In this document: positions 10,169 to 54,310 of the stretch, in pieces
Layout: every line of letters starts with the position of its first letter
How positions within the stretch are numbered: the first letter of the stretch is position 1
NCBI GenBank assembly: GCA_020137815.1
Contig: CM035352.1
Span: 2,914,001 to 2,978,000, forward strand
Source of the DNA: Hormiphora californensis
Taxonomy: Eukaryota > Animalia > Ctenophora
Length of the DNA stretch: 64,000 nucleotides
Reading direction: 5' to 3'
The notes under the pieces: model-generated
Told to the model about the DNA's origin: nothing
The model's input: the letters and a program-made list of their open reading frames with translations, nothing else
Database searches by the model: none
Program-made: the position numbers and the translations under genes

Positions 10169-22264
<12,096 letters not shown>

Positions 22265-22945: not shown

Positions 22946-27817
<4,872 letters not shown>

Positions 27818-29051: not shown

Positions 29052-30287
29052 GGGGGGGTTCCAACCTATTTTTTTGTATTTTTTTGTATTTTTTTGTACG
29101 GACCATACATAAAAGTATCCAAAATTCCTGTTTTTTTCCATACAAACAATACAAAAAAATACAAAAAAATACAAAAAAATAATGAAGGATGTGGGTGCGT
29201 GAAAAAAGTATAAATAATACATGTACATGAACATAAACGGAACCCAGCTATACATAAACGGTAAGAAATTGCGATTCGGGGAAATTTCTCGCTTAGAAAA
29301 TACGATTCGGGAAAATTTTCTTGGTAAGAAATTGCGATTCGGGGAAATTTCTCGCTTAGAAAATACGATTCGAGAAAATTTTCTCGGTAAGAAATTGCGA
29401 TTCGAGGAAATTTCTCGCTTAGAAAATACTATTCGAGAAAATTTTCTCGGTAAGAATTTGCGATTCGAGGAAATTTCTCGCTTAGAAAATACGATTCGAG
29501 AAAATTTTCTCGGTAAGAAATTGCGATTCGGGGAAATTTCTCGCTTAGAAAATACGATTCGAGAAAATTTTCTCGGTAAGAAATTGCGATTCGGGGAAAT
29601 TTCTCGCTTAGAAAATACGATTCGGGAAAATTTTCTCGGTAGGAAATTGCGATTCGGGGAAATTTCTCGCTTAGAAAATACGATTCGAGAAAATTTTCTC
29701 GGTAAGAAATTGCGATTCGAGGAAATTTCTCGCTTAGAAAATACGATTCGAGAAAATTTTCTCGGTAAGAAATTGCGATTCGGGGAAATTTCTCGCTTAG
29801 AAAATACGATTCGGGAAAATTTTCTTGGTAAGAAATTGCGATTCGGGGAAATTCCTCGCTTAGAAAATACGATTCGGGAAAATTTTCTCGGTAAGAAATT
29901 GCGATTCGGGGAAATTTCTCGCTTAGAAAATACGATTCGAAAAAATTTTCTCGGTAAGAAATTGCGATTCGGGGAAATTTCTCGCTTAGAAAATACGATT
30001 CGAGAAAATTTTCTCGGTAAGAAATTGCGATTCGGGGAAATTTCTCTCGCGATTTTGGCATGCTACATATGTAAAATATGTATATTAAGCCAAAAACTAA
30101 TTGAAATTAGTTGGCGGGAAAGGTGACCCACTTACACCTTTTGCTCCTGCCGGGTATCACCACGAACTCTCATTCTATCCCTCGGTATCTCAATCTCATA
30201 TTTTTCGAGGGTAACTTATTCCTGTTCGTTCTATCCCTCTCTCTCCTCCCTGTCTCCCTGTCTCGCTCTCTCTCTCTCGCTCTCTCT

Positions 30288-33398: not shown

Positions 33399-33504
33399 CA
33401 GAGAGAGACTGCTCACGACAGTCAACCGGAGAATGCGCGTCTCATGGGAGAGAAAGTTAAAATAAAACAAATTTATTTACCATGAAATATTAAAATGAAT
33501 CATT

Positions 33505-33939
33505 CTACATCATTCTATATACATCGAATCGAATACAAGCGAGACATTCAACTTGCCAGGCTGTTGACGGACGGGAGTTTCTCGCAATTTCTATTAGATC
33601 ATCTCGCTCAATATCACTTTTGATTTTCCTTGTGTCCGCTGGCGTGATTATAAGTCGAGCCGTATCAAAAACCATCGTGTTGTTTGAAGGATGATAAAAC
33701 TTCATATTATCGGTGGGAAGATGTCGCATGATGTATCCAAAGGCTACATTGAGCTTCACATGTTGTTTGTAGTTAGATAGAACTTCGTCCAGCTTACCAG
33801 ATATTTTATCTGTCAAGGACAACGGGAAATGATACACATCTTTCAACTTTCCTCTCTTAACACTTTTTTGAATTGGTGACCAATGTTGACGATAGATCCC
33901 CTGAAATTCTTCAGGGATAGATTCAATAAACGATTCCAT
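33505..33939 (-). CDS. Stand-alone homolog of the N-terminal (terminal-protein-like) region of Polinton pPolB
   Basis: Motifs YRQHW..I, KLNVAFGYIM, FYHPSNN..FD, DDLIE.AR..RPST.W.V, F.VY match my recollection of the pPolB segment preceding the vOTU domain. Stop is followed by AATAAA. Confidence 0.65.
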   Translation of the reverse strand: MESFIESIPEEFQGIYRQHWSPIQKSVKRGKLKDVYHFPLSLTDKISGKLDEVLSNYKQHVKLNVAFGYIMRHLPTDNMKFYHPSNNTMVFDTARLIITPADTRKIKSDIERDDLIEIARNSRPSTAWQVECLACIRFDVYRMM

Positions 33940-34032
33940 TCTAAAATTGAGTTGAAAAACGTTAGTTACTGAAACTTTAATATTAGTACACAGTAAGACA
34001 CATCTGATTCAATAATAAGGTTACAAATCATA

Positions 34033-34434
34033 CTAGTTTAGTTTTCTCTTCTTTGCAGGTGATTTATTGTAGATTAATTTATCAACTTCCTCGTTTACAT
34101 ATCTTCCATAGTAAATAGCCTCTGGGGTCACAGTTAAGATGAAACTTCGCCCGCACGAAATGTAACACTGACGATCCTCCTCTGGTTTGTCTGACTGGGG
34201 AAGTTTCGGTTTAAGAGTCTCGTACTCTTTTGAAAGTGTTCTGAGAAGTTCCCCTTGAGCAGTGAAGAAATGTTTCCCCAATTTATCCAGCAGAGAGTCC
34301 TGTTGACACATGTGTAGAATTGGTGACTTCAAACCAGCTTTGTGAGCTGGGCATGTTTTCTCCGATATCCTACAGACTTTCCGAACCATGCTATCACATA
34401 GTGCTGCAGTCCAAACATTCTCAAAATACAACAT
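34033..34434 (-). CDS. Viral hypothetical protein with C-terminal NLS-like PAKKRKLN
   Basis: 133-aa ATG ORF divergent from the integrase, sharing a TA-rich promoter region. Confidence 0.6.
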   Translation of the reverse strand: MLYFENVWTAALCDSMVRKVCRISEKTCPAHKAGLKSPILHMCQQDSLLDKLGKHFFTAQGELLRTLSKEYETLKPKLPQSDKPEEDRQCYISCGRSFILTVTPEAIYYGRYVNEEVDKLIYNKSPAKKRKLN

Positions 34435-34570
34435 ATTACAACTGTGATATAACAGGTGAATTTCAACTCGATCTTCCTATATATATATATATATATATAC
34501 TATATATAAGAGGTACTAGGCAAGTTCTACCCCTCTTATCGACGTGTTTATTTGTTTCATCCGCACAAGT

Positions 34571-35666
34571 ATGCCACGGAAAAAGGTCCGCAAAAAGTCG
34601 CAACCGAAAGACGACATCCAGAAATTGTACACAAATCCTAAATCTTCAGGAGCGTTTGCAGGCAAAGAAACATTTTATCGATCAGCAAGAGAGCAAAATA
34701 AAAGGTTGAAGAGAACGAATGTGAACAAGGCTCTTCTGAAAAGTGACCCATATACTCTCCATAAGCCGGTTCGAAAGCCGCGTCGTTATAGACGTATCTA
34801 CACCAAGGGTATAAACTATCATTTTCAAGCTGATCTTGTGGATATGAGTGCATACTCCAAGGAAAATGACGGGTACAGGTGGATACTTAATGTGATCGAT
34901 ACATTTAGTAAGAAACTGTGGGCATTTAGACTGAAGAACAAAACTGGTAAAAGTGTTTATGACGCTCTTGAACCGCTTCTTACTAAACTAAGACCTCAAA
35001 AATTTGAGACGGACGGAGGGGGAGAATTTAAAAACAAAAGACTACTGGATCTATTGAGCAAGCTTCTCATTGACCACTATACTGTCTACTCTGATCAAAA
35101 GTGTGCCGTGGTAGAGCGTTTGAACAGAACTATGAAAACTCGAATTTTTCGAGCCTTCACAGCCCAGGGCACACATCGATGGATCGACATACTAGACAAG
35201 TTGGTTCAAGGGTACAATAATAGCCATCATCATTCTATAAAAATGAAGCCGAGTCAAGTTAACAAGAAGAATGAAAATGTTGTACGCAGAACGCTGTTCC
35301 CCACCCGAACCACCTCCCCGTCCGCCAAAGCTCAAAGTTGGTGATACTGTCCGCGTCTCGGGGATTAAAGACGTCTTTCAGAAAGGTTACGAACAAACAT
35401 GGAGTTTTGAAGTGTTCACTATCGACGAAGTCAGAAATACTAATCCCGTTACCTATCGATTGAAAGATTTCGCTGGTGAGCAACTCCAAGGGAGTTTTTA
35501 CGAATCACAAGTTCAGGAGGTCGATAAGACAAATGAAATTTTTGCTGTTGACAAAGTGTTGAAAACAAGGAAACTGAGAGGTCGAGTTCAATATTTTGTT
35601 AGCTTTAGAGGTTACCCTGAATCAGAGAACAGGTGGGTGAATAAATCTGACATGTATGATGTATAA
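34571..35666 (+). pseudogene. Retroviral-type (rve, DDE) integrase with C-terminal chromodomain, +1 frameshift near 35299-35302
   Basis: YTLHKP, QADLVDM, IDTFSK, TDGGGEF, VERLNRTMK, YNNSHH.SIKMKP. The second frame continues KLKVGDTVR..KGYEQTWS.E.F and a chromodomain (VDKVLKTRK..QYFVSFRGYPESENRWV). Confidence 0.9.
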
Positions 35667-35698
35667 AAGTATGTTTTACACTTCTCATTTGATTCAAA

Positions 35699-36301
35699 AT
35701 GTTGCTTTTTGCAAACTCTAATATCCTTGTTATTGGTGCTAGTGGGAGTGGGAAAACAACCACAATCATGAAAATTGTGAGGGAAGAACTTATTTCCCCG
35801 ATGCCAAAGAAAATATTCTACTTGTATGCCGCCCATCAACCATTCATGGATACGTGGAACCAAGAAAACAAACAAAAGGTTGAGTTTGTGTATGGGTTAA
35901 AGCTTGATGTGATAGACAAATACGAGGAACCCAAACTCTTGATTCTAGACGATCTAATGCTTGAACTCAACAAGGATATGGCTCAACATTTCATAGCAGG
36001 CTCGCACCACAAACAAACGACAACTATTTTTGTGACACACAGTGTGTTTCTAAACAACGAGAACTATCGTCTGATAAGTCAGAACGCACAATACATGATC
36101 CTGTTTAAAAATAAAAGGAATCTCTCTCAAGTTAATACGCTAGCACGTCAAATTCTTGGGTCAGATAGTAGTAGACTCATGGAAGCCTATAAATACATTG
36201 GACCGTTCCAGTCTGTATTACTTTCCTTCCACCCACGTGTTCCAGAAGATTTACTGGTTACAACAGATTTCTTTACACCATGTCCAAGCGTGTTCCTGTA
36301 A
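35699..36301 (+). CDS. A32/FtsK-like DNA packaging ATPase
   Basis: Walker A GASGSGKTT, Walker B LLILDD, GSHH..TTIFVTH, RLISQNAQY..LFKN.R. Confidence 0.92.
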   Translation: MLLFANSNILVIGASGSGKTTTIMKIVREELISPMPKKIFYLYAAHQPFMDTWNQENKQKVEFVYGLKLDVIDKYEEPKLLILDDLMLELNKDMAQHFIAGSHHKQTTTIFVTHSVFLNNENYRLISQNAQYMILFKNKRNLSQVNTLARQILGSDSSRLMEAYKYIGPFQSVLLSFHPRVPEDLLVTTDFFTPCPSVFL

Positions 36302-36591
36302 CACTGAAAGCACACCACGGTGCATTAAAGCTTCTTTCGAAAAAGAACACTGCCCAAATACGAATTATTTTGGATAACACACCGTCACTTCGTAAAGCAC
36401 TCAAAATACTATTCAAAAGTATTTTGAGGGGGCATCTAAGTATGGAGAAGCGAGATTTGACCAAACTAAAGAGACACCGTTCCTTTATCAGAAAACACGC
36501 TCACGCACCTATAAAAGTCAACCAGAAAGGTGGTTCGATAATTCGCACCATTCTGCAGACTATACTTCCTCTGTTACCCGCAGTCCTATGA
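36280..36591 (+). CDS. Basic Polinton core-like protein with QKGG protease site and hydrophobic tail
   Basis: Lys/Arg-rich, ends NQKGGSIIRTILQTILPLLPAVL; overlaps the ATPase end. Confidence 0.75.
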   Translation: MSKRVPVTLKAHHGALKLLSKKNTAQIRIILDNTPSLRKALKILFKSILRGHLSMEKRDLTKLKRHRSFIRKHAHAPIKVNQKGGSIIRTILQTILPLLPAVL

Positions 36592-36797
36592 GGTACCATT
36601 TGGTAGAAGCTAACGGGAGTGTAAAAAAGGCTCTCACGATTCCTGCTGAAATTATTCCTTTAAAAGGACTGAGTAGAAAGTACAAGGAACCTAAACCAAA
36701 GCGGAACAAGAAGAGACGTGTTACAAAACGTTTACACTCTGCTAAAGCACTTGTTAATGGACATCATCGTTACAAGCAAAAACCAAAGACCAAATAA
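36588..36797 (+). CDS. Small highly basic protein (possible DNA-binding core protein)
   Basis: ATGA start/stop overlap with the previous ORF; KPKRNKKRRVTKR. Confidence 0.5.
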   Translation: MRYHLVEANGSVKKALTIPAEIIPLKGLSRKYKEPKPKRNKKRRVTKRLHSAKALVNGHHRYKQKPKTK

Positions 36798-37461
36798 CTT
36801 TTCTTCCAACTTCATTGACTCGATAAGCTTAGCCGACAATTTTGAAATCGCTGTAAAGGGTATATTTCATGGTCCAACGTTCAACATTACCGAACTAAAC
36901 AACACGTTTCGGATTTTTGATGGAACTGACTGTATAGCACGGTTGGAAATATCACCTGGATTTTATGCAAACACATGTGATCTGATCAAGGCAATCAACA
37001 ACGTATGTTTGGTGAACGAAATCAATACGAGTTATAAGATAAACTCAGGAAAAGTAACCCTAAAATTGCCAAAGAGTCATGCAATTGGAACTGGAGGTAA
37101 ACAGGACACACTGTTGAGTGTTTTGGGATTCTGTGAACATGGAGTTGATTCCACCCCTACCTATATTGGTCAGTTGGCGGTTGACAGTTATAGCCTGACA
37201 AATCAAAGTGAAATCGCCTTACTGTATTCATCGATTGTTAATAACATGCAAATTAACCAACAACACTCTCGTTTATTAGCATGTTTCCCTATTAAATCTG
37301 TTGAGGGTTATAATTATCATGAAGTAACAAACCCCATGTATCGACCACTAGCTGTGCATGCCTTTATCGACCTACATTTTCTTTTGACTGATATTGAGGG
37401 AAAATTGCTTGAATTTGCTGATTTACCTACTGTTATCATTTTAAATATTCGAAAAGTTTAG
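36757..37461 (+). CDS. Minor capsid protein (penton, single jelly-roll)
   Basis: N..F...I.L...FEIAV, PGFY, LYSSIV...SRLL, NPMYRPL, LTDIEGKLLEF, IILNIRK pattern of Polinton mCP. Confidence 0.85.
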   Translation: MDIIVTSKNQRPNNFSSNFIDSISLADNFEIAVKGIFHGPTFNITELNNTFRIFDGTDCIARLEISPGFYANTCDLIKAINNVCLVNEINTSYKINSGKVTLKLPKSHAIGTGGKQDTLLSVLGFCEHGVDSTPTYIGQLAVDSYSLTNQSEIALLYSSIVNNMQINQQHSRLLACFPIKSVEGYNYHEVTNPMYRPLAVHAFIDLHFLLTDIEGKLLEFADLPTVIILNIRKV

Positions 37462-37522
37462 CCATGTGTCGTTGTCGTTTACTATAAATATAAATACACC
37501 CACCCCTTCAAACCATTCAACC

Positions 37523-37834
37523 ATGCGACAATCGTATTACCCATCTGCACAGGTCAGAGCCGCTTTCGATCGTGCTCTTGACAGTGACCTTGGTGTCTAT
37601 CACAATCAAACTGGTGGGGGTATTGGTGGTTTCTTTAAAAAGTTGCTTCGAACTGTAGTTCCTATTGGAAAATCAGTTCTCCAGAAAGGTTTTGAAATTG
37701 CGAAACCTGGACTCCAGAGCGCTGGGAATGAATTAGTCAATGCTGCTAGCAAATATGCAACTAAACAAATCGAAACTGGTGCTTCAAAACTTTCTAACAA
37801 GATCGTTAAGCGAAAAAGGGACGCTCTCTCGTAG
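37523..37834 (+). CDS. Core/membrane-lytic-like protein with QTGG site followed by an amphipathic helix
   Basis: HNQTGGGIGGFFKKLLRTVVPIGKSVL; basic C-terminus KRKRD; TATAAATA ~40 nt upstream. Confidence 0.75.
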   Translation: MRQSYYPSAQVRAAFDRALDSDLGVYHNQTGGGIGGFFKKLLRTVVPIGKSVLQKGFEIAKPGLQSAGNELVNAASKYATKQIETGASKLSNKIVKRKRDALS

Positions 37835-37873
37835 GGTATAAAAGGCGAAGTTTAAGGGTTCATTTACAACACC

Positions 37874-39163
37874 ATGGCCAAGTACGTCCAGTCATCTGAG
37901 GGCTTACCCACACAACTTCACTTGTGGAGTCCCCTACCAACACAAACCGGGATCCTTGCGACAAAACTGATCGATGTTTACCCCAACAACTCAATCGACA
38001 GCTCTGACACAATTTCATTTACTATCCCTGCTCTGGAGCAACTTATGTTGGACTCCGTGGAGGTCTTTACTGAACTGAGGGTACTTACAAATGAAGGAGG
38101 AAACCCGGCTGCTAAGGCAAACGTGTCGACTGCCCCTCATCTTGGTGCTATATTGTGGAGGAACGTTGAAGTCTCGTCTGGTGGTGTTTCTCTAACTCAA
38201 TCCTACGACAATTCCTACGCGATGTTTAAGTTCTGGGATGATGCAATTCACCATGGTAGGGATGAAGAAGCCTTTCTTATGCGTAAGGAAGGTATGCTCC
38301 TTGATAGTGTCGGTGATAAGTCTGAGAGTGAGAGTGTTGTATTTTTCCCCGAAACTGGTACCCCGAAAAATACAAACGGACAATTGCGAGCCAAGAGGAT
38401 TTCCAAGGGCGAAAAAGTGTTTCTTTGCTCTAAATTGAACGTATCAATCTTTAATCAAGCGACTTTACTTCCCACAAATTTGGAGTTTCAAGTCCAGCTC
38501 ACAAAGAACTACAGCGAAGCAATCCTTCTGTCAGCCGCAAATGATACTTCGCAGGTTAAGTTTGATAGGGTATTTTTGAGGTGTAAATTTCAACAGCCAA
38601 GGGACGAAATTCTGAATATGCTCGAAGTTAAACTCGCCAAACGGAATGCTATATACCATGCTGACAAAATGCTGATGAACATCCACCCCATTAGCACCAA
38701 ATCGGTCACAATTGACAATTTATTCAACGGACCACTTCCCTACTTTTTCTACGTTGGAATACAGGATCGTAGTGCGTTTGGAAAAGCACGAAACAAAAAT
38801 CCTTTTTCCATTCACTTGATAGAAAGTGCCCAACTTTATGTAAACGGGGTGGAGTATTATCCACAGAAGCTTAAAATGACTGACCATGATGAAACTAACA
38901 TGGCAGTAGCTCTTGCAGAAGCGACAGGGTCTCGTAAAGACAACTTCATACTGCATCATTTCCGTGTGTACCCTGCTCTCGGTTTTGATTTGACACAAGA
39001 TAAGTCCCAGAATCAACATGGTATGAACTTGAACAGGACTGGTAATGTGCGAATTGTACTGGAGCAATTAAATGATGTTCGATTGGAAAAGGTTCTTTTC
39101 ACCCTTGCCTACTACGACCGGATTATAGAAATCGATAAAGATCGACGGCTTTTCGCTATATAA
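37874..39163 (+). CDS. Major capsid protein (double jelly-roll, Polinton PY/hexon)
   Basis: 429 aa; L.LW...PTQT.I, ISFTIP, LLPTNLEFQVQLTKN, NLFNGPLP, NPF, FDLT.D, GNVRI, IIEIDKDR. Confidence 0.9.
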   Translation: MAKYVQSSEGLPTQLHLWSPLPTQTGILATKLIDVYPNNSIDSSDTISFTIPALEQLMLDSVEVFTELRVLTNEGGNPAAKANVSTAPHLGAILWRNVEVSSGGVSLTQSYDNSYAMFKFWDDAIHHGRDEEAFLMRKEGMLLDSVGDKSESESVVFFPETGTPKNTNGQLRAKRISKGEKVFLCSKLNVSIFNQATLLPTNLEFQVQLTKNYSEAILLSAANDTSQVKFDRVFLRCKFQQPRDEILNMLEVKLAKRNAIYHADKMLMNIHPISTKSVTIDNLFNGPLPYFFYVGIQDRSAFGKARNKNPFSIHLIESAQLYVNGVEYYPQKLKMTDHDETNMAVALAEATGSRKDNFILHHFRVYPALGFDLTQDKSQNQHGMNLNRTGNVRIVLEQLNDVRLEKVLFTLAYYDRIIEIDKDRRLFAI

Positions 39164-39192
39164 GCTTCTAAATCAATGGTTTTCCTCCGGAA

Positions 39193-39615
39193 ATGAAGCA
39201 ACTAAAAACAAAGTCGTTCAATGAAATTGAGACAGACCGATTTAAAGGAGCGTTTGCATATGATGAAATACCAGAAGATCTGTCTGATAGTCAATGGAGT
39301 TTTGTTGTCAATACAGCTCCGTCTACCGATGTTGGTGAACATTGGATTGCTGTTATTTTCAAGGAAGGGGTGACATATTTCATGGACAGTTATGGTCGGC
39401 AGCTGAGTCGTAGAGAAGTCACGTTTACGCCAGCATTTGTGGATAAATTGAAAAGTGTTGTACGGGGACGTATAGTTAGCAACAAGAAAATTTTGCAGCA
39501 GCTAACTAGCAATGCATGTGGTTATTACGCTGTGTATTTTGTAGAGAGATTGTCTGTAGAAAGTTTGAGACAAACACTACAACCGTTTACAGGAAATTTA
39601 AAGCAGTCAGAATGA
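39193..39615 (+). CDS. Adenain-like cysteine protease (C-terminus probably frameshifted)
   Basis: VNT....GEHW, FMDSYG, QQLTSNACGYY give the His/Asp/Gln/Cys catalytic set. Confidence 0.9.
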   Translation: MKQLKTKSFNEIETDRFKGAFAYDEIPEDLSDSQWSFVVNTAPSTDVGEHWIAVIFKEGVTYFMDSYGRQLSRREVTFTPAFVDKLKSVVRGRIVSNKKILQQLTSNACGYYAVYFVERLSVESLRQTLQPFTGNLKQSE

Positions 39616-39680
39616 ATGTTTTGTTTTACAATATTGCTTTTCATAAATTGAGTTGTTTATCTTTACTAACTATGTCCACA

Positions 39681-39995
39681 TTAGCCACCCAAATCACATT
39701 CAATGTCCGCTGGATCAAAACTTTTCACGCTAATCGGAGAGGGTGGACCATAAACTGGTTGAACGCGTCTCACTGGTAGATCGAATATGGGATACCCATC
39801 TTCAAACTTAACTTTACGCTTTCTCTTCTTCTCTTCCAACTCCATTGTATACATCTTTTGGTTTGCCTCCTCAACACGTTGTTTGGCTTCTTGTTTTTCT
39901 ATGTAGGCATCTGCATGGGGTATTCGAGGAGGAGAGAGATTTTCCCATGATTCTTCATCAAATTCTATGTTATGCGAAGACCAGCACAGACCCAT
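39681..39995 (-). CDS. Viral hypothetical protein with N-terminal MGLCWS acylation-like motif
   Basis: 104-aa ATG ORF, upstream TATATAAAT, coiled segment and KKRKRK. Confidence 0.6.
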   Translation of the reverse strand: MGLCWSSHNIEFDEESWENLSPPRIPHADAYIEKQEAKQRVEEANQKMYTMELEEKKRKRKVKFEDGYPIFDLPVRRVQPVYGPPSPISVKSFDPADIECDLGG

Positions 39996-40155
39996 GACAA
40001 ACTAAAACACACGGTTTTGAGAAATGAAACAAAATAGTAGACAATGATTTATATAGCACACAATTCACAGTCACACATATCATAATCATCATCCGCTAAC
40101 TCATTCGCATTTGTTTTAAAGACTATAACACGGATAGAAGCTAACGAAATAATGT

Positions 40156-40500
40156 TCATCGAAGGCTGCTCCGGTTGAATAAGTTGTAGAACGGAACTAC
40201 CGGTTGCTTCTGCAACTGTAAGAAACCTTTGATGTGTGCGTTTAAACCACGTCGCAAGGTTTCTTGATCCTCCCAGAAATAACTGAGTTCAATTCTGATT
40301 GGTTGATCATCAATATAACGCCTGTCAACCCCAGAAACAATGGGAGGGATCTGTTCTGGTAGTGTTACTGGAAAGCGAAAGCTGTCTACAGTTAGACCAA
40401 TCTGTACATCATAGCTTAGATTGTTTCCGTAGCTCTCAATTAATGAACCAATCATATCCAAAGTATCCTCGTAAAATACAGTATCCTCGATGGCAACCAT
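40156..40500 (-). CDS. Viral hypothetical protein
   Basis: 114-aa ATG ORF with TATAAAAG ~35-40 nt upstream. Confidence 0.6.
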   Translation of the reverse strand: MVAIEDTVFYEDTLDMIGSLIESYGNNLSYDVQIGLTVDSFRFPVTLPEQIPPIVSGVDRRYIDDQPIRIELSYFWEDQETLRRGLNAHIKGFLQLQKQPVVPFYNLFNRSSLR

Positions 40501-40752
40501 TTTAGAAATGCCAAAATAAAAGATCGCGAACTCTTTTATAGGGGGTGTCTACGTCCTTGCTGATTACTGCAGTGGGTTATTTGATTTGGAGACTTTTGGT
40601 GAGGTAGTGTAATCAAAGTGTGCTTCAAACACCTGGTTAATATGGTACAGTTTTGACAAAAAATTCGCGACTGGGGCGGAGATGTTCGAGCAAAATAGGC
40701 TAGTAAATTACGAGTCTCCATGTCGATTGGAAGAGAAATGTTTCATCAGACT

Positions 40753-41320
40753 TTATATAGCTGTCTCCCGCTGCTCTTCATTATGATGATCGTTAAGAAC
40801 AAGTCGATACTTGGTCTTTATGAACTCGAAAACAGTTGGGGCTTTAACTCCAGTGAACAGGCATAAGATGATTACGAATGGGATACAATAAAGAGCGTAC
40901 ATTACATTACATACATAAACTTGTTGGCGTGCCGTAACGTTTACAGCGATACACTTTTTCTTCCGTGCCCTCGTCCACAAAACCCCCCTTGAAAGATTTT
41001 ATCTGACAAGTAACTATTAGTGTGTTGAACTTTAGCTGTTGCACTGACCCTTTGCTATCTATCAGGTTCATACCAACCCCGTTAACTGTTTTTGAAGGCC
41101 ATTGAAATGTAGAAATTGGGCTAGTTGAAGCAGTAAAGACTTGTACATTTTGAGATGTGTTGTACACCACAAGTTTTATCAGCTCCCCCTCTTTTGTAAG
41201 AAACGCACGTTTGTTATGACCTCCGGATAAAGAGAGAAAATTCGTACAATTCGTGTCACTAAACTCGACCAAGAATGAGTTGGTGATGAAAACTGAGGTG
41301 AAAAAAGCCGTCAAATTCAT
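40753..41320 (-). pseudogene. Type I membrane glycoprotein-like gene split by a frameshift at ~40899-40913
   Basis: Hydrophobic N-terminus, NCT/NTS sequons; TM-like MYALYCIPFVIILCLFTGV in the next frame after an (ATGTA)3 run. Confidence 0.55.
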
Positions 41321-41362
41321 TTTCTCGATTTCTTTTAGTTTGCTTTATTTTCTCTTTATAGC

Positions 41363-41466
41363 AAAAGTGGGGTGGACGGCCGGGAATGATGCGGTGGGAT
41401 TCGAACCCACGACTGCCACACTACTAAGTAGTTTCGGCACCTTAGGGGCCCGGCTATCCTCCCCGG
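41363..41466 (-). ncRNA. tRNA-Leu-derived Pol III-type small RNA (not a canonical tRNA)
   Basis: TAGCCGGGCCCCTAAGG (A-box/D-arm-like), perfect T-arm GTGGG-TTCGAAT-CCCAC, terminal stem CCGGGGA.GAT/ATC.TTCCCGG, TTTT 13 nt downstream of the stem. Confidence 0.6.
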
Positions 41467-42242
41467 TGTTAAAATGGAATTTTGTCTTTTAGAAACAGGT
41501 TGAGCTCTCTACATAGCGAACGTCGAGAGGAGATGAGGCGACGAGAGGGAGATGAGACCCACGACTGCACACTACAAGTAGTAGGGGCTAGTTACTCGAC
41601 AACTTAGGTCCTCTCTATTTCAGCTCTCTCGGTATCGAATTCTGCTCCGTTATCTACCCGGGAGAAATTAGAGAGTAAACCTAAGATATGATATATATAA
41701 GAAGAGACCGGAGAGGAGGAGAGAAGATGAGGCACTAAGCGATATATAGCTATATAAGGTACTCTATATACTCTCTCTCATTTCCCTATACCGTCGTCTC
41801 ATGTGCAGCCACAATGACCATCCTGGTTTGACCAGTGTAAATTAATCAAGCCAACGAGAATCCGAGAGTAGTAACGAAGGTAGTTCGACCGAAAAAAGTA
41901 GTTTTCAAAAACAATTGGTATATTCGCGGGCCCGAGGAACAACCACATATCACGAAGCCACGCTGGGATTTAACCCACCCAGTATCGTTCTCCTCCTGTC
42001 TTTTCCTCTTTGCAGACGCGTAAATTTATAATTAGTGTTGTTATATAATAACTTTCAAAATGATCACAAACTTCAGATCCAGCTCGAAGGATCACATATT
42101 ATTAGCTCGAGTAAGGAACAATTTAGACTAAAAGTGTTCCTGTGTAACCGCATGACACACCAATTTTCCAAAAGTCACACACACCACACACACACCCTAT
42201 AAATAGAGCTGTGTGACAGTAATACCTGATGTAATTCAGATC

Positions 42243-43050
42243 ATGTACGTTGTTGCTAGTAGTTACGGACAAAATCCAGGCAATTCATTTTACGCGCAAA
42301 GGAGAATTCACGATGTAATGTGAATACGAATATAACTACAAGGGTGTTGTGGTGTCAAAAGTGTGAGCCATGCTCCCTCGTCGTTTGCTAATGTTACAGA
42401 AGCTAACAGCTACTTCACAATTTTCAAAAACCCGCATGGTGATCGTCAAACCAGGATGTATTCAGTTCCACCAGGATTTTATCGAACTAGTGCAGAATTA
42501 TTACTGGCAATGCGAAAAGCTATCTCTGACAAAGAGCGGGAAAACCTGAGAGATGTGGATATTGATAATTGGGAGACTCCAGACTATATCGCTGATGAAA
42601 ATACACATACCTGTGCTTTGGTATATACTGCTAAATCTAAGTATGGTTTTCCGGCCAAAGACAGTGGAGTGATAAGATTTTTTAGGAAGTTCATGGAGCG
42701 AACATCTATTATAGATTTTCCCAGAAAACTTGCTGGTAAAATGGAACCTTTCGACATGCGTTGTCAACTTGGTTATATCTATTCAAATATTGTCCCTGAA
42801 ATACATACAATTAGTAATAACTCTTGACAAGGGTTGTAAGGGTTCTGCCCCCCTGTTCTTTTAACCAGCACAAGTGCGGTTACAATATTATGATTTTGTA
42901 ACCCATGTATTTCAAGTGAGTTTCCGTTTTTGGCTGAAATGCTACTTCAGTATCTCAGATAATATGGGACAACTTTTTGAATTTCATGAAGACGATGAAA
43001 CGAACTTTCCAACTATCATTGTATTACATTTTCGAAAAATATCTAACTGA
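42243..43050 (+). pseudogene. Second, divergent minor capsid (penton) paralog with several frameshifts
   Basis: MYVVASS.GQNPG, GVKSVSH, NVTEAN, VPPGFY, YIYSNIV, PMYF, ISDNMGQLFEF, PTIIVLHFRK parallel the 36757 ORF; TATAAATA at ~42198. Confidence 0.75.
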
Positions 43051-43228
43051 GATTCAAAAATAATTTAAAATAACCTGTGTTGTGATATTTTGTTAATTAT
43101 TCGAATGCACCACTCCTCCTTTCAAAAATCCTACTTATTGTCGTAGTTGTATGTCTTGTAGTTGTCTGTGTCTGTCTGTCTGTCTGTCTGTTCTGTCTGT
43201 GTTCTGTCTGTCTGCTGTCTGTCTGTCG

Positions 43229-44547: not shown

Positions 44548-47500
44548 GGAGATTGAGAGGAGAGAGATTGAGAGCGATCAAAAGACACTTGAAGCATGCC
44601 ACTGAGAAGTAGTATAATACCACCCCCCCCCCCCCGTCATCTATATAATATAAAGGAACCCCCGATATACCGTGCAAAATGACTCCCCCCCCCCCCCCCA
44701 TGGATCCTGGTATATCGGGGTCGGAATGTGATGAAGTATGTATCTCCACAAAACCTCCAGCATTCAAATTTGTCCTTAACCGTTTTATTTTCATCCAGAC
44801 GTTTCTACGAGATCATTTGGATCGGCCTTCCAGTCTCTTCGATAATATGTCTCCATTCCGTGAGATTGAAAATACAAGGTATAAAATGCTTTATATGGCA
44901 GTAGGAATTAATTAAAAAATAAATACATGCATATTAAGAACAAATTAGCTCAGTTTAGTTCATTGTCACAGTTAGTTATTCATACTTTAGTGATAGTTCA
45001 TTCTTAAAATGTCCATAACTTATTTATTATTACCACCCCTTTCTATTTAGGTACTGGAGTTATCCTTGTATGGGTCACTTTCTTGAGCCTCTACAGTGTA
45101 GAGTCTACACCTCCCCCTCCCCCATCCCTTCCCACTCTGTTCATGTTCACAGTCCGAGATATGAGGCTGCTCCACCCTCGGGATAGCCGCCAGTCCGCCA
45201 GGTATTTTCTACCCCCTCTCTTTAGTACTTCAATTTCCGTGACGAGGCTTTTGCAGTATTTTACTAGCCTTCTATCAGGTTTTCAGGGCCCCTTAGCTGC
45301 AGCAGACGCTGTGTGGGTCCCTAGTGTGTACGGATTTTATGTGTGTATTGAATTCCTTACCTTTGTATCATGTATGTACACCTAAACAGGGTCTGTCACC
45401 AGTGTCGCATCGTTTTGAAATTCTCCGCACAAACGACTAGCACAAAATGACAACATGCAAAGAATTGCTTGCTGCTCAGTTTGTTTTTATGTTAGCGACT
45501 TGAAACAAAGTACATCGTTTAGAGAATTAAATTGTCTATGTCTAGGTGAAAACTAGACGAAAAATGAGCAAGTACAGGAGTAACTAGAGAAATCTAAAAA
45601 GTGACCTCAAAAAACCGTCTTTTCGACCAAATATTTTGAAATCGCCATAGCTCTGGAAGTAGGGCTGATCTCAAAAATCGGTGAAGAGTAGGTCGAACAG
45701 TTTTGTCTGAATTTTCACGTAGTACCGGTTTTAACCTGATAGGACCAACCACCAATGAGCCTACCTCAAAAAACTTTGAAACAACCTGATTTTTTCAAAA
45801 TTTCGCTCTTCCCGAGAATTTTGGAAAAGTGTCGCATCATTTTCGCGATTTTGATACGACACTTTCCCCCTGCATATAAATGCCTATATCTCTCTTCCTC
45901 TCTAGTTTCTACGCCACGATCTCACTTTTCTAGTGTATCTAGGAGGTTACACTCACTGGGGAGGGGGGCTGCAGTTTTTGGTTGTGCTGCTGTAGAATAT
46001 CTGGCCAGGAATTGGCTAAATATGCAACTAATTGATATCAAATCAAAAATCACTCTACCCGACTAATTTCGATACGCTGAATCACGTGAGCAACTTTTTA
46101 AAGCCCACAGAGGCCGATAAAGTGCTCTAATTGGGCATAATTGGGTCTAATTGACCGAAATTACAACTTTTCTCCTGGAAACGCTATCATGACAAATTTA
46201 GGCACTTACCCCACTGATTTTGATACCCTGATTCACATGAGCATCTTTTATCAATGATGGATAAAATGCACGAATTGGACATAATTGGGTCTAATTGGCT
46301 AGCATAATTATAAATTTTCCTTGTAAACACATTTACTTCCTTTGAAGACACTTCCCCATTGATTTTGATACCCTGATTCATTATATCAGCAGGGCATCTA
46401 CATCTTAGTGGTGGGTGCTCTAATTGGGTCTAATTGATTGAAATTACAATTCTTTCCAAAAAAAATTACAAATAAATCCGTATGAGGGCACCTTCCCCAA
46501 TAATTTGGATACGCTGATTCGAATGAATAACTATTAACTATTATAAGCTCTAAGCAGCGGAGCCAATTCCCTAATTGAGTATAACTGGGTCTAATTGATC
46601 AAAATAATTACAATTATTTCCTGTTATGTATACATAGGGTGCACTTTACATAATGCTTCTCTCTCAAATCAGTGTAGTTAGTATCTCCAAAATCCAGGTG
46701 AACTTTTACAGGGAAAAGTTGTAATTATATTGCTCAATTAGACACAATCATGCTCATTTAGAGCATTTTTTCCACAATTTCGAGCTTAGAAAAGATACTC
46801 ATGTGATTCAGGGTATCGAAATTAGTGGGTTAAGTGCCTAAATTTGTCATGATAGCGTTTCCAGGCGAAAAGTTGTAATTTCGGTCAATTAGACCCAATT
46901 ATGCCCAATTAGAGCACTTTATCGGCCTCTGAGGGCTTTAAAAAGTTGCTCACGTGATTCAGCGTATCGAAATTAGTCGGGTAGAGTGATTTTTGATTTG
47001 ATATCAATTAGTTGCATATTTAGCCAATTCCTGGCCAGATATTTTACAGCAGCACAACCTTGGGCACGTCGCGCCCCCCATGTTCGCGCGCCCGTAGGGC
47101 GATCCCCTCACATAGGGGGCACAGTCACGACTAGGGCACTCGTAGAATGCTTCGTTCTGCTAAACGGCGCTAGTTAGCGTTTTAATTTTTGGATTTTCTG
47201 ATCGGTCATGTTCTAAATGAATGCAACGAACAGGTCTCGATTTGAAACTCTCAAAAACCGTGGCGTAATCGCCGATTTGCTCAAATCGGTTTTTTGGCAA
47301 TTACGGGAGAACGGAATATCCATAAAATCCCAAACTCTGGGATATGTTAGAGGAGACAATTTGACACCTTCGTGTCGAAGGATTTTTCTCTTATTCTTCT
47401 GGTCTTCAACTGACGGCCATTTGAATTAATTTGACCTCTCTTCCCCCGACCCTTAGTCCCACTAAACGACAGCTTTATAAGTAACCATCTTTTTTTCCCA

Positions 47501-48083
47501 GGTAGAGAATCCCTTGAACTGGTGCAACGTATAGGTGGATAAGCCAGAAACGATTTCTGGACAGAGGAATCGACTCTCAAAGTTGGATGATTTCAAACAG
47601 TGATTGGACTTTTTGGGACACTTTGACTTTAAAAAGAGTGATACATTTATCATTTTCCGACATAATTTTACCTAATTTGACCAACTAAAGTGTTTAATTA
47701 ATCGTTAATTGCTTAATTAAGAAAATCGGACGCGCAAATATACAAACGCGCTTGTTTTGGACAGAAATTGCGCGCGCTGAAGAATCTTCAAAGTGAATCG
47801 TGACGGCGCGAACTGAAAAAGTTGCGCGGTTTTTTTTTTCGAAACTCGAAAAGTCAAGAATAATTTGCGCACTATGCCACGGATCAGGACCCATCCTCTT
47901 AACCCATTCTAAGGGCCTGCAGCAAAGAGAAAACTTTTCCGGGACTATTGAAAATCTAAGCGATGAATTATTCTGAGGCTCGAGCGACCTATACACAGCG
48001 TATGGCGACATTTAAAGGATTCTTACCTGAAACGTCTACAGAAAGTTCAGAACGTCAGACGTCTACAGAAAGTTCAGAACAGT

Positions 48084-49630
48084 GCGACACGATACATATA
48101 TGGGAAAAGAGGAAAACGGGGTGTAACAAAACTTCGCATGAAATCACACTTCTTGCCTGTGAAACAGCGAATAGAGTACAAAATTTGCTTGATGGTATAC
48201 AAGATTCTTCATCTTCATGATCAATCACCTCCATACATGTCTGAGATGTTAGTGAAGTGGCCCCAGAAAGTGAAATCACTCCGAGTGGATAATGACGTCA
48301 CCGCTCTGAAAGAGGTGCGGAGGAGTGAGTACCACTACGAAAACACTAGAGGCGCTTTCAGTATTGCTGCACCTAAATTATGGAATCAGCTACCACGATC
48401 AATCCGGGACTCAGAATCCCTTACTACTTTTAAAACATCCCTGAAGACGCACTTGTTCTTTAGAGCATACAACCAATGACCGGCAAAATAATCCTCACTT
48501 CCCTACATCCACATGGATTCCTGAGTAACTACTGTCTCTAACTCCTATTCCTGATTCCTGGGCTCCCTTTTTCTCGTGTATTCCTTCACATCGATACCTG
48601 CATCCTTTCTCTCCTACATTATTCCATGTTGATCCCTGGGTCCTTTACTCCTACCTTGCTCCACATCGCTCCCTGGGTCCTTTCCCAACCTTACTTCATA
48701 TCGATCCCTGGGTCCTTTACTCCTACTTCCACTCCACATCGATCCCTGGGTCCTCTACTCCTACCTCCTCCACATCGATCCCTGGGTCCTTTACTCCTAC
48801 CTCCTCCACATCGATCCCTGGGTCCTCTACTCCTACCTCCTCCACATTGATCCCTGGGTCCTTTACTCCTACCTTACTTCACATCGATCCCTGGGTTCTT
48901 TACTCCTACTTCCACTCCACATCTATCCCTGGGTCCTTTACTCCTACCTCCTCCACATTGATCCCTGGGTCCTTTACTCCTACCTCCTCCACATTGATCC
49001 CTGGGTCCTTTACTCCAACCTCCTCCACATCGATTCCTGGGTCCTTTCCCTACCTTGCTCCACATCGATCCCTGGGTCCTTTCCAACCTCCTTCACATCG
49101 ATCCCTGGGTCCTTTACTCCTACCTCCTCCACATCAATTCCTGGGTCCTTTCCCTACCTTGCTCCACATCGATCCCTGGGTCCTTTCCCAACCTCCTTCA
49201 CATCAATCCCTGGGTCCTCTACTCCTACCTCCTCCACATCGATCCCTGGGTCCTTTACTCCTACCTCCTCCACACCGATCCCTGGGTCCTTTTCCTTGCG
49301 CTGCTCCATATCGAGCACATCCTCATTCCTCATTCTAAAAACTATTTACAACATCCCTTCTACACGCTACTCATCACCTCTTATCACGACAGTTGATTGA
49401 TTCGGTTTTTTGTACATACATATACACACTGTGAAGAGTGTTTGAATTAGACGAGATAACCCAGCTAGAGGTAGCTACGGGCGGAAACGTCCGCATGTTG
49501 GACATATATATTTTTTAATTTGTGAACCAATATGTTTAGTGTATTAGCGGGGTGTCAATAATTACATTTATTTAATTTATTGACATTATAAATATAATTT
49601 TAATCTTGTAATCTTGTAATCTTGTAATCC
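48084..49630 (+). mobile_element. 5'-truncated L2/CR1-group LINE (ORF2 C-terminus, stop at 48479, plus 3' UTR)
   Basis: HFLPVKQRIEYKI..., AFSIAAPKLWNQLP..IR....L.TFK..LKTHLF; probable (AATCTTGT)n tail at ~49602-49630. Confidence 0.8.
48588..49312. repeat. 36-bp minisatellite (~20 copies)
   Basis: TCCACATCGATCCCTGGGTCCTTTACTCCTACCTCC repeated. Confidence 0.9.
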
Positions 49631-51253
49631 ATTTCAACTGAGATAAAAATTTGGGGCTCAGGAAGATCATGTTTAGTTCTTATTCCTAAATGAGCTTTTT
49701 ATTTTTAAACATTGTAAACCTCTCTAGTGTGTTTCATGGCGAAACGAGGAAATCTGACGAGTGACGAAATGGATAAATCTGAATGAACGGTACAAAAACC
49801 CAGGATTTGATGCCCTCCAAACATCAATTTTATCACTTTTCTAATTGGATACTGCGTTCTGGATACTGTGTTTAGTATCCCATGCTTGGCACTCTCTCAG
49901 ATACTCAGCAGGTAAGATATGCTATCACCACGAGAAGTGGGGGACACAAAGTCATAACCCAATTTGATCCAAGCGACAGTGCGCTCAGATGGGGTCGGCG
50001 GCGCAAGGCAGCACCCTTGACCCGTGATAACAATCTCCCCTATTTCAGAGAACCACAGCAGTGAGTAGCTGCAAGATACTTCCCAGTTATTATTCAACGT
50101 ATCTTCCACAATGTCCACAGACCAGAACTTACAAGAAAGGAGAAGAAATTGAACAGCTACCATTACCCCCTGATCTCATCACCATCCCCTCACTCTGGTA
50201 GGTGATAGTTTTGTTTCTTAGTTAAAGTCCACCTGGAATTTGTACATAAACTAAAGATATATTAAACACTGCCATTACAACTATTTTAGAACCCCTTCTA
50301 CTCATCCCCTTGCCCTATCACCAGGTAAACAAACATGAGTTTAGAAATCTGGTGTTGAGGTGACATGACAGCTGTGAGATGACAAGAGGGAATGGTGGGT
50401 GTGCCAGTCTCATCTCTGTAAAACGGTAGGCACCACTGAAGTTATACCAAATTATATGTAATGCACAGTATTTTTACACAGTACAGTTATACACAGTATA
50501 ACAGTACACACATACGTCATACATGTATTACCAACACTGCGGGTTCGTCACCAAGGGAATCTCAAAACACAGTGGTTCACCAAGTTTACAACTGTTTCGG
50601 GAGATAGTTTTGGTGTGTATTTTGGGTGGGGTGATGTTCAAGAGGTCAGCCGAAATTTACACTGTAGTAGAGTCGATTAGCACACATGACTAGACTCTCG
50701 CAATTTTTACTGCCTCATCGTTATTGCCTGGCTCTATCCTCTTTCCGTGCGCCCCGCCCTCTTTTACAAATGTAAAGGAGAGTTATAACATCGTTATGGA
50801 TCTTACGCAGCATGTTGAGAATTTATATATATATTTGCCATTTGCCAACCTACTCTTGACGTTATATCTGTAACCCACACACTCAATTCCAGGTGTTCAA
50901 CGGTTGTCCTTCTCAAAAATAGTCCATCAGAGGATAACTACTATCTCAGACCCTGCTAGTTATTGATGGGAAAAGTGGTTATGTTGCATGTCACGCTCCT
51001 CTGCTCGCCGTCAAGTGGTTATGACATCGACATTATTTAAGGTGAGAGCAACCAGTAGTTTATACTTTGTAGTTCTCTATACTAGTAGTTGACAATTCAA
51101 AATATTTTAATTCTATATGTTTTCTCTCGCCCTACCTGCTACCATTCTATGAATCCTCTCTCTTTCACCCTCAGTAGCTGTCAGTCTCTCCCTCACTATC
51201 TCTCTAGCTCTATCTACCTCTCTCTCCGCCTCTCTCAATCCCCCCTCTCTTTC

Positions 51254-51292
51254 TTGCCCGCGTAGCGAACATGAGGGGCGCGACGTGCCCAA
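51254..51292 (-). mobile_element. 39-bp minimal element of the TTGGGCACG family
   Basis: Reverse complement TTGGGCACGTCGCGCCCCTCATGTTCGCTACGCGGGCAA; TSD CTCTCTTTC at 51245-51253 and 51293-51301. Confidence 0.8.
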
Positions 51293-52000
51293 CTCTCTTT
51301 CGTTGTAGTACTGGATTTAAGATATCTCACATGTGATCCCATCCTTCTAGTTGTGGGTGGTTGTCTTGCGGGTGGTTGTGTTGCGGGACCCGATCACTAG
51401 AATTTGCTGTTAGGTTTATCAATTGTTTAGCAGACATAGCCCCTGGCAACCGTGTATCTTCCCTGGGTGGTATTAATTCCACAACCTTCTTTTTCCATTT
51501 TTGGTGACCCCCTGAAATTTATAAAACTTTCCTAGTAACTCCGTAGGGCTATTCCCAAGATAGCAGAAATGAAATCTAACCTATTCTCTCTACAGGTAAC
51601 TTTACGATAAGAGAGTCGAAGGATATTTTAAACTGCACTAGGGAATCAATAATGAGTTGTCGAACCTAATGGTGAGTTTACAACCCTCTAACACTGTCCC
51701 CCTTTACCAACCCTCTAACACTGTTCCCTCTTTACCAACCCTCTAACACTGTTCCCACTTTACCAACCCTCTAACACCCCTTCCCTCTCAGGAAGGAGAT
51801 CTTGAAGAGGAACAGTCAGGCCCAGCTGCAGTCAAGAGATCCCCACTGGAAGCTATGACCCAGACTGATAAGGAGCTAGATCACATCTCGACCTGAAACT
51901 GATGATTTGGAGGATTACTGTGATAAGGTTTGTGTTCAGCTCTAACCCCATTTAGGTTGCTTTTCTCAATCCCCTAACTGCTAATTTACACTCCCGTGTA

Positions 52001-52894
52001 TGGTAAGCTGGGGTAAAAGTGGCCCATTTTTAATTTATACAGCAGGAAAAAAATGTATAGGCTACCCAATGAAACGTTTTCCTTTCAGCCGGGCTAAATT
52101 AAAAAAAAGCTCTATTTAATAGGTTAATTAATCAATTCAAATAATTTGGTGAGGCTTTTTTTTTGGAAAATTTGCACTTGGGCAAAGTGGCCCAAGCAAT
52201 AGCATTGCTCAATTTTATCACGTGACTGATGTTGTTAAAACACCGATAGTTGGGGCAAAGTGGCCCATGTTGTCTCCAGCAGCTTGCCCCAGTGCATTCC
52301 AATGTCACGTGGTATTTCATACTCCATTTTATTGGTTCTAGAGGTGGACCACTTTGCCCATGGGTTGACCGCTTTGCCCCAGTGAGTGGACCATATTTGC
52401 CCCAATTTGACTAATTTGACAATTTAATCAACTTAATATGTAGTGAGTTTTTTGAAAGAAATTTTATGTCTAGTTTTAGAAGAATAAAAAACCTAGCTGG
52501 CAGTTTTTGTTCATGTTGTGGAAAAGGCGGACGGGGTGATACATTGGAGTGTGGGGGACACGTCCGGGGCGTGGGAGGTCATACGAAGTCAGAACACGGT
52601 GGTTGGTGGTAGTGTTGAAAAGTTTCAGACTTTTCAACACTACTTTAAACAAATTAGTTTGAGCTGAAGAAGGGGCACAACCCCGAAACGTTCCAACCAA
52701 CCACCGTGTTTTGACTTCCCACGCCCCGGACGTGTCCCCCACACTCCAATGGCAGTTTTTGCAAATTTAAAATCGGCCAACTCAAACAAAAATCACAGCA
52801 GTTTTAAATAAAAAATCCGGAACAGAACGAGCAGGCCAATTTGCCCCATACATGGGCCACTTTACCCGATGGGCCAACTTGCCCCAGCTTACCT
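52001..52894. mobile_element. pogo-like MITE with nested inverted repeat (52542-52750)
   Basis: GGTAAGCTGGGG...CCCCAGCTTACC, TA flanks, repeated GGGCAAAGTGGCCC motifs. Confidence 0.65.
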
Positions 52895-53571
52895 TACTCG
52901 TATAATAGCCCATGTTATATCTAATCACTCAACTCCTGCTACCCAAACCGCAGTTTCCATATTTTATCGGTTATCCCACCCCAACACCCCTAACTCACCC
53001 CCTAATCAACCAGGCCCTAACACCCCATCTCCTCCTCTCCAGGACCACTCAGAGCCGGAATCCGAGTTGAATGTAACAAACTGCACCACATGTTATTATG
53101 ACGGCAACTGTGGCCTGTGGATGCTGTTGTGATGTGTGCTGTGATGTCAGGACATTGAAGAAAAAAATTCCTTACTCCCCTAACACTGCATACATCATCT
53201 ACTGACTGCAGTATTGATCCAGCTCCATTTTAGCTGTTTACATGGAATGGGAATAGAATTATAAATACAGTGAATGGACTCATTATAAACAATACCAAAT
53301 ATTGGAAGGATCCCGTGGTAGAAATATGACAGTGGACACTGGACACTCTTTGTTGGACGTGCACATTTTTTGGATCGAATAATTTTTGAGCGTCCCATGA
53401 GGTGTTTTAGGATGTTCTCAATTCTTACTCGGTGATATTAAAAACACAAATCTTAGGTATCCATTGCTATATATTACAGAGTGGATGGAAATTGGAAAAT
53501 TAGTTTTGAATACATAGAATTCATAAATATATTCCCCCCCCCCCCAAAAAAGTGTCATTTTTGCTAATATA

Positions 53572-53706
53572 CAGTCGGTTCCCGATTTACCGCGATGCTC
53601 GGGGGAAAGATATTGCCTGATAATTCGGGGTGCCCGGGTCAAATAATGTTAATTTCTTATCCCGGCTCGGGTATATATCAACGACCGGTAAATTGGGGTC
53701 CGACTG
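53572..53706. mobile_element. Tigger/pogo-like MITE
   Basis: TA-CAGTCGG...CCGACTG-TA. Confidence 0.75.
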
Positions 53707-54310
53707 TAACTTAATAAATAGTTCTTTGTCCATCACAATCTTTTAACACTTATTTCCAGGTACTGATCATTGAGTTTCGAACAATGCCGTGTAAACTGTC
53801 CTCTATCAAGAATTATGAAGCTCCCATCATCCGGTGTAGGACTTTTTCATGACAGAGGTATGGTATAATGTTAATTAACAATCAGGTCATTATCAGGTCA
53901 TCACAACACTTTAGGTTGTGGCAAACATATATTTGCCACAACCTAAAGTGTTTCAATTTGTATCCAGCTCCCTCTACACCCGGTCGAGCACTTTCGTGGC
54001 CGTCGCCGCCCCGTATTGTATATTTTCCAGTATAAATCCTAAATCGCATTCTCTCTTCACTCTAATTTAAAATTATATCTCTCTCACCTAGTTTGAATCG
54101 GTCCTGACCAAGATGTTAACGTTGGTACATATTTGTCCTTTTCCTTCTCAAGTTTCGAATAATGCCATGTGAACTGTCCTTTCATCCCGTTCCCGAAAAT
54201 GAGGTAACAAGATTTAAGTATTTATTTTATGAGTTTTGAATAATGTTTAAGGGGTCATCAATTCAGCCCTAAATTACAAATTGGCTTAATTCAGTTTTCA
54301 GATGGTGCTA

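Follow-up and report, generated by a model that had tools for sequence, protein, structure and literature searches.

Small RNAs that RNA polymerase III (Pol III) makes from viral genes are familiar in vertebrate viruses, in which they are taken to be antagonists of PKR. Whether an endogenous virus of an early-branching animal carries such a gene is the question raised by positions 41464-41363 on the minus strand of a ctenophore sequence (Hormiphora californensis, contig CM035352.1), where a TTTT run accompanies a B box and a weak A box inside a Polinton block. The window, meaning the whole 64,000-nt stretch analysed here, consists of repeat-rich animal DNA. A first-pass annotation of this DNA had proposed that the locus encodes a tRNA-Leu-derived, refolded and functional viral Pol III RNA, analogous to adenovirus VA RNA. 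We conclude that the ctenophore Polinton carries here a real Pol III-type RNA gene, which is probably functional and of which the expression is predicted, and we hold it to be fairly probable that this Pol III RNA gene is maintained by selection. The coordinates of its features and of the surrounding element are collected in Table 1.

Table 1. Features of the RNA gene, its neighbourhood and the host element, in window coordinates.
Feature	Position	Strand	Remarks	Basis
Compact viral block	~33.4-43.1 kb (33440-43100)		both sides run into microsatellites	
Polinton/adintovirus core block	34571-39615	+	rve integrase, chromodomain, packaging-type ATPase, capsid, protease	
Major capsid protein	37874-39163	+	429 aa, double-jelly-roll	structure model
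Predicted Pol III RNA gene	41363-41464	-	~102 nt	promoter boxes, fold, T-run
Terminal stem, 5' arm	41449-41464	-	overlaps the A box	pairing probabilities
A-box-like element	41446-41456	-	at +9, 3 mismatches to TRGYnnARBGG	
Likely class II tRNA D-arm remnant	A-box-like element extended to ~41439	-		D-arm motif
Central hairpin	41414-41439	-	in place of anticodon and variable arms	sequence and fold
B box, perfect	41397-41407	-	lies in the T-arm loop (T arm retained, 41395-41411)	
Terminal stem, 3' arm	41369-41384	-	beyond the old tRNA 3' end	fold, pairing probabilities
TTTT, predicted Pol III terminator	41363-41366	-		sequence
TATAAA-type box	41354-41360	-	directly 3' of the terminator; the next ORF has its ATG ~35 nt further on	
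ORF, 137 aa	40907-41320	-	directly downstream of the RNA gene; no significant Pfam match	
Degraded second copy	41557-41600	-	26/28 core matches, without B-box loop or stable fold (z -0.08)	

The host element

An rve integrase, a packaging ATPase, a double-jelly-roll capsid and an adenain-type protease, the proteins by which a Polinton/adintovirus-type element is recognised, are all present in the core block. Pfam returns rve (E 4e-11) and Peptidase_C5 (E 7e-4) together with weak P-loop and Pox_A32 matches, and the capsid model (pLDDT 86) matches the double-jelly-roll capsids of PBCV-1, Sputnik and adomavirus. A further protein of the block is presumably the penton, a name that we take from its position, and the block also contains small ORFs. 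Capsid searches yielded 86 relatives at E<=0.001; among the 10 of these 86 that were checked, the cluster to which the closest (93%) belongs includes a protein of Pleurobrachia bachei, and a cluster at 48% includes Mnemiopsis proteins. By these relatives, a pleurobrachiid ctenophore is the likely host. The same gene order was found in marine metagenome contigs, the capsid and the ATPase found no relatives in searches of viral contigs, and a search of a genome collection returned two short contigs that lack the downstream region. Presumed polymerase pieces of three metagenome contigs (L009, L015 and L021) have no match in the window, and Pfam gave no polymerase match for these pieces. No long inverted repeat occurs in 32.3-44.3 kb and terminal inverted repeats were not found. 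Because both the polymerase and the terminal repeats were not found, the copy in the window appears partial or non-autonomous and looks defective, with an intact-looking capsid block.

A broken frame at 42245-43040 (+) weakly resembles (E ~1e-4 to 8e-4) what is presumed to be the penton region in three metagenome contigs (L012, L016 and L019). It may represent a second minor-capsid gene; two such genes are present in L005 and in L021. Elsewhere in the window, a 63-bp tandem repeat forms two arrays with matching flanks (19800-20900 and 29100-30170), one of which yields a spurious ORF of 301 aa. Many long, near-perfect inverted repeats with arms of 200-670 bp were also seen, including those at 13136-16645, 23666-25063, 45539-55136 and 61514-62860, and are likely foldback or MITE-type DNA transposons.

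Promoter elements and predicted fold

The consensus sequences of the A and B boxes were taken from passages of PMC10137851. The B box matches GGTTCRAnYCY at 11/11 positions, which confirms the perfect T-arm/B box described in the first-pass annotation, and neither strand of the 64 kb contains another perfect B box; the sequence of T arm and B box on the minus strand is GTGGGTTCGAATCCCAC. The A-box-like 5' part described alongside it is also present, if weak in view of its three mismatches, and it ends 38 nt upstream of the B box. Two of these mismatches, at A-box positions 10 and 11, are the same C residues that are found at these positions in 4.5SH, a natural Pol III gene that is transcribed (passages of PMC10137851). 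No TATA box was found in the window sequence upstream of the RNA gene. The start at 41464 was inferred from the end of the terminal stem and the A-box spacing, and the TTTT run previously noted after the RNA is present at 41366-41363.

The 104-nt stretch folds with a minimum free energy (MFE) of -45.7 kcal/mol (z -3.4) and the ~102-nt gene (41363-41464) with -45.9 kcal/mol (z -3.9), none of 200 shuffles being as stable in either case, and the opposite strand folds more weakly (z -2.7). In the terminal stem (41464-41449/41369-41384), 14/16 positions are paired with probabilities of 0.95-1.0, and the stem closes two bases before TTTT. The predicted stems measure 16, 5+5 and 5+2 bp, and in the modelled RNA the terminal stem, the central hairpin and the T arm meet at a three-way junction. 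A different outer stem, pairing 41466-41456 with 41390-41380, had been drawn previously; its register is wrong, as the pairing probability is 0.0 at 11/11 positions and forcing it gives -35.5 instead of -45.7 kcal/mol, a cost of 10 kcal/mol. Two further structural statements of that annotation were borne out, namely that a hairpin replaces the anticodon/variable region, which can be read directly from the sequence, and that the canonical tRNA acceptor stem does not pair. The central palindrome resembles Polinton end motifs; a reading of it as a Polinton end junction was dropped because the palindrome differs in a paralogue of the gene.

tRNA ancestry

ARAGORN at its default setting calls no tRNA at the RNA gene; at a relaxed score of 85, it calls the gene, without an assigned isotype, together with two other weak calls in the window. 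Rfam gives no tRNA, VA or vault match at E<=10 for the gene, which does not form a cloverleaf, its acceptor stem being unpaired and its anticodon arm replaced. In isotype counts that were drawn from the tRNAs of viral contigs and not of ctenophores, the T-arm motif was found at at least 126 loci, at least 106 of them called tRNAs (61 Ser and 4 Leu, spread over 17 isotype classes, among the matches listed), and the D-arm motif was found in 20 tRNAs among 120 loci, 11 of them Leu and 9 Ser. One viral tRNA-Leu(TAA) carries both motifs, and blastn matches in phages are confined to the T arm of assorted tRNAs. These motifs suggest a class II tRNA as the likely ancestor, with Leu somewhat more likely than Ser. 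The proposed derivation from tRNA-Leu is thus retained in part: a class II origin is likely and Leu is favoured, but the T arm that had been used in support of Leu is not Leu-specific, because Ser tRNAs far exceed Leu tRNAs among the listed matches.

Copies in public contigs

Part of the viral block is present in 12 public runs from five studies, and 6/12 have at least half of its words. Four of 14 listed public runs were compared over 40700-42200, with runs X3 and X5 representing organism A and X11 organism B; the fourth, X14, presumed to be RNA, yielded no contig, which does not bear on expression. Contig depth is not usable as a copy number. In X3, a single contig of 3,915 nt spans the neighbouring ORF and the gene as far as 41486 without a break and with one differing letter, which speaks against a young, high-copy SINE, since such a SINE would be expected to break the contig. 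In X5, the gene is covered by several short contigs, therefore suggesting further near-identical copies there. Organism B is represented by two contigs, ~85-88% alike, that lead out of the adjacent ORF and enter or cross the RNA gene, of which the flanks differ by ~8-15%; because these contigs join ORF and gene, the position of the gene is conserved. Among the matches listed, both contigs of organism B share differences at four places in the adjacent 140 nt and at none in 41363-41448, a sparing that may be taken as a weak hint against neutral drift. The CGC after the T arm, which the first-pass annotation considered to be as in tRNA-Leu, varies between copies; an extra letter behind 41391 has 126.4/126.4 of the depth in X3 and 1608/2480 in X5, and is absent from the organism B contigs (0/39.1).

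A paralogue of the RNA gene is present in three DNA runs, on a contig of 452 nt without any other match in the compared stretch. The stem was compared across copies by eye, for the 3' arm of the paralogue and the 5' arm of organism B: the former is complementary to 16/16 positions of the window 5' arm, including two wobbles, and is directly followed by a T-run, and in the latter three changes, set against the window 3' arm, amount to one pair gained, one kept and one lost. The central hairpin of the paralogue, also judged by eye, is ~9 instead of 5 bp long, has the same loop and is still paired.

The degraded second copy, situated 90 nt upstream of the RNA gene, is the only other copy within the 64 kb, and the two copies possibly form a tandem pair like VA I/VA II. 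By eye, the degraded copy resembles the paralogue in hairpin length. The interval 41487-41895, within which this degraded copy lies, is covered by no contig of the three DNA runs, and the organism A contigs diverge at both of its edges. Here the assembly may be noisy or chimeric, or the interval may represent a divergent copy. Neither a SINE body, a tail nor a target-site duplication was seen by eye in the window, in which the upstream flank is poorly supported by contigs, and exact-pattern searches for the RNA gave no hit in viral contigs and none in metagenome contigs. Taken as sequence comparison, the pattern in public contigs appears unlike that of a SINE, and this alternative is disfavoured.

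Look-alikes in distant Polintons

A metagenome scan returned 29 loci, of which 18 gave a protease match that could be used, with 50-5,761 nt of sequence past the protease. Searches of these loci with nhmmer identified no homologue of the window RNA (best E 8.3, in L023). The same layout, in unrelated sequence, was found beyond the protease and on the same strand in 2/18 protease-matched contigs, L027 and L028, whose capsid segments are 37% and 39% identical to that of the window. In L027, a TATA box at ~-30 precedes positions 1606-1474 (-), which comprise a perfect B box next to a weak A box and a T5 run, and the sequence folds (z -8.3) into a 133-nt near-continuous rod ending at T5. Behind this RNA, as in the window, come a TATA box and then a small ORF, a 42% homologue of the window ORF 33505-33939; because L008, a close relative of L027, diverges shortly after the protease, RNA and ORF look like a swappable cassette. 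In L028, the corresponding 127 nt at 1057-931 (-), preceded by a TATA-like box, have an A box with two mismatches and a B box with one, and 15/16 terminal pairs before T5 (z -3.7); a short AT-rich tandem duplication lies in the middle, and no comparable ORF start is found in the 60 nt behind the T-run. The other 16/18 protease-matched contigs show no such RNA gene. Downstream DNA reaches at least the 1.75 kb of the window in 3/18 contigs, and these three have no RNA gene and presumably a polymerase instead.

Two stem-closed hairpins of L023 with imperfect B boxes, located beyond the protease at 1575-1490 and ~1380-1270 (-), were not counted: one (z -0.3) folds no better than shuffles and lacks a T-run, and in the other, possibly an inverted-repeat element, the ends of the folded segment were incomplete. 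The Rfam vault model gave no match at E<=10 for the window gene, L023, L027 or L028. As a separate observation, the presumed polymerase coding sequence beyond the protease of L006, L009 and L021, for which Pfam gave no match, appears split by AT-rich stretches, of which the GT..AG ends suggest spliceosomal introns.

The combination of B box, T4, at least 12/16 terminal pairs and A box, with criteria chosen after the three hits were known, occurs at three real sites in 153 kb as compared with 0.06 per shuffle (100 shuffles); with a looser B box, four real sites with an A box stand only slightly above the 1.0 per shuffle (10 shuffles). The pair count is permissive, because it is passed by 10/126 listed T-arm loci, 3/10 of them with an A box. 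Terminal duplex energies amount to -28.7 kcal/mol for the window gene, -34.8 for L028 and -23.1 for L027, whereas the best control duplexes reach -21.2 in a set of 525 shuffled B-box+T4 sites and -22.5 at the 32 such sites of the 126 listed loci. Duplex energy separates real from control sites better than the pair count, with a small margin for L027. In a capsid and protease tree of 19 rows, the branch leading to the window is long and its placement lacks resolution, and the tree does not discriminate a shared origin of the three genes.

With these results, part of the earlier proposal, a refolded Pol III-type RNA gene, and one that travels with the Polinton, is supported by the promoter boxes, the terminator, a stem above all controls, the synteny in organism B and the two distant look-alikes. 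The register of the stem and the basis for Leu had to be given up.

Proposed mechanism and alternative explanations

From these features, we infer a series of events in which the element would have taken up a tRNA of class II (Leu or Ser) and kept its promoter boxes, while the acceptor stem and the anticodon were lost and a 3' arm was gained that pairs over the A box. TFIIIC on the B box would then lead to Pol III transcription of an abundant ~100-nt RNA ending in U4, the terminal stem and short 3' tail of which would engage exportin-5, Dicer or other dsRNA-binding proteins. Engagement of exportin-5 or Dicer would, in turn, blunt silencing of the element. By analogy, we tentatively propose that the RNA acts on behalf of the element as a VA-like, Pol III-made dsRNA decoy against host RNA silencing. 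A stem of 16 bp is short for a Dicer substrate, and this length counts against a decoy role at Dicer. PKR is not known outside vertebrates, and it is therefore not a likely target in a ctenophore. Since Mnemiopsis has Dicer, Argonaute and exportin-5 and lacks Drosha, Pasha and miRNAs according to passages of PMC3563456, siRNA-type silencing would be a plausible target. The broader reading, that animal Polintons and adintoviruses repeatedly and independently made VA-like terminal-stem Pol III RNAs from host tRNA genes, is more doubtful, and so is its second part, by which these RNAs would represent an RNA-based counter-defence.

Instead of a decoy, the Pol III product could be the precursor of small guide RNAs, comparable to TMERs, BLV Pol III miRNAs and mivaRNAs, that would regulate transcripts of the element or of the host, which we consider unlikely. 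Pol III hairpins do not depend on Drosha, which would suit the absence of this enzyme in Mnemiopsis next to Dicer and Argonaute (PMC3563456, in part), mivaRNAs are derived from VA RNA terminal stems (passages of PMC7589676), and the L027 rod would be a good Dicer substrate. However, the stems of the window RNA are short, the three RNAs have no common sequence beyond the boxes (the best nhmmer E of 8.3 being that of L023) and miRNAs were not found in Mnemiopsis as far as covered by passages of PMC3563456. A role at the DNA level, in which the TFIIIC-bound B box serves as an insulator or as a promoter helper for the small ORF and the RNA is a by-product, seems quite improbable. It would agree with a perfect B box next to a weak A box and with the arrangement shared by the window and L027, where a TATA box comes no more than 2 nt behind the T-run and an ATG ~35 nt later. 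Insulators formed by tRNA genes are known. Such a role would not explain why a stem of 14-16 bp ends right at the terminator in each of three unrelated sequences, nor why the central hairpin of the paralogue is paired, and L028 has no ORF start at the corresponding place.

It is likewise improbable that the sequence is neutral cargo, a drifting SINE head, vault-like or other Pol III gene of the host of which the paralogue would be the source. Such an origin would be in keeping with the paralogue contig, which matches nothing else in the compared stretch, and with the degraded copy upstream; yet the 64 kb contain no copy other than this adjacent one, the X3 contig passes through the gene without branching, the gene is kept at the same site in organism B despite the divergence of its flanks, and Rfam finds no vault match. 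The independent look-alikes in other Polintons, and as a weak hint the placement of the shared organism B differences beside and not within 41363-41448 among the matches listed, also argue against it.

If the broader reading is true, the VA RNA strategy would be older than PKR and vertebrates and would act against Dicer-based silencing in one of the animal lineages that branched off earliest. A gene built in this way in a ctenophore Polinton, together with look-alikes in other marine Polintons, would mean that endogenous viruses carry non-coding RNA genes that are missed by protein-based annotation, ARAGORN and Rfam. Such an RNA gene would mark Polinton activity and would allow for a direct test of whether viral Pol III RNAs began as RNAi decoys, and the small, easily made RNA would be a probe for antiviral RNA sensing in ctenophores.

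Comparison with known systems

Searches of the open-access literature on Pol III, tRNA-like or non-coding RNAs in Polintons or adintoviruses, and on ctenophore Polintons, yielded reviews or unrelated work and no description of such an RNA among the items listed. The window gene shares with tRNA-derived SINEs a tRNA-derived head with A and B boxes, but it shows no body, tail or target-site duplication, reaches its terminator at once, has no dispersed copies in 64 kb and occupies a fixed place in the element. Gammaherpesvirus TMERs and the BLV Pol III miRNA cluster are small structured RNAs made from viral tRNA-type internal promoters, as would be the case here; in contrast to these, the window gene does not consist of an intact cloverleaf followed by pre-miRNA hairpins, and its 3' extension pairs to the 5' end. 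In EBER1/2 and vault RNAs, the 5' and 3' ends are paired in a terminal stem before the U-run. These are type 2 Pol III genes (passages of PMC10137851) and resemble the window gene in their A and B boxes and its predicted terminal stem before the U-run, and L027 and L028 in a TATA-like box near -30; the window gene differs by the absence of an Rfam match, by clear remnants of tRNA D and T arms and by its location in a Polinton. Closer to the host element, genes predicted to encode tRNAs were flagged by Starrett et al. in some MELD viruses that have other replicases (PMC8502044, in part); these are tRNA-type genes in relatives of adintoviruses. The window gene differs from these in not being called a tRNA at the ARAGORN default, and the main text of PMC8502044 contains neither 'VA RNA' nor 'non-coding'.

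The most extensive comparison can be drawn with adenovirus VA RNA I and II, for which a tRNA origin has been proposed and whose genes contain an internal Pol III promoter of type 2, as predicted for the window (passages of PMC7589676 and PMC6599070). The terminal stem of VA RNA holds box A, is bound by exportin-5 and is cut by Dicer (passages of PMC7589676); the window gene likewise has box A in its terminal stem, here a predicted one, and a U4 terminator. Box B of VA RNA is found in the apical stem-loop and that of the window gene in the T-arm loop, and both genes belong to double-jelly-roll viruses that encode an adenain-type protease. VA RNA differs in its length of 160 nt as compared to ~100 nt for the window gene, which has no Rfam match, and in its GGGU-ACCC central stem and long apical stem, neither of which is predicted here: GGGU and ACCC both occur in the window RNA, in the T arm and the terminal stem, but are unpaired with each other in the MFE and centroid structures. 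The host also differs, being a ctenophore that likely lacks a miRNA pathway. The window RNA is built like a VA RNA, but it is not a member of the VA RNA family.
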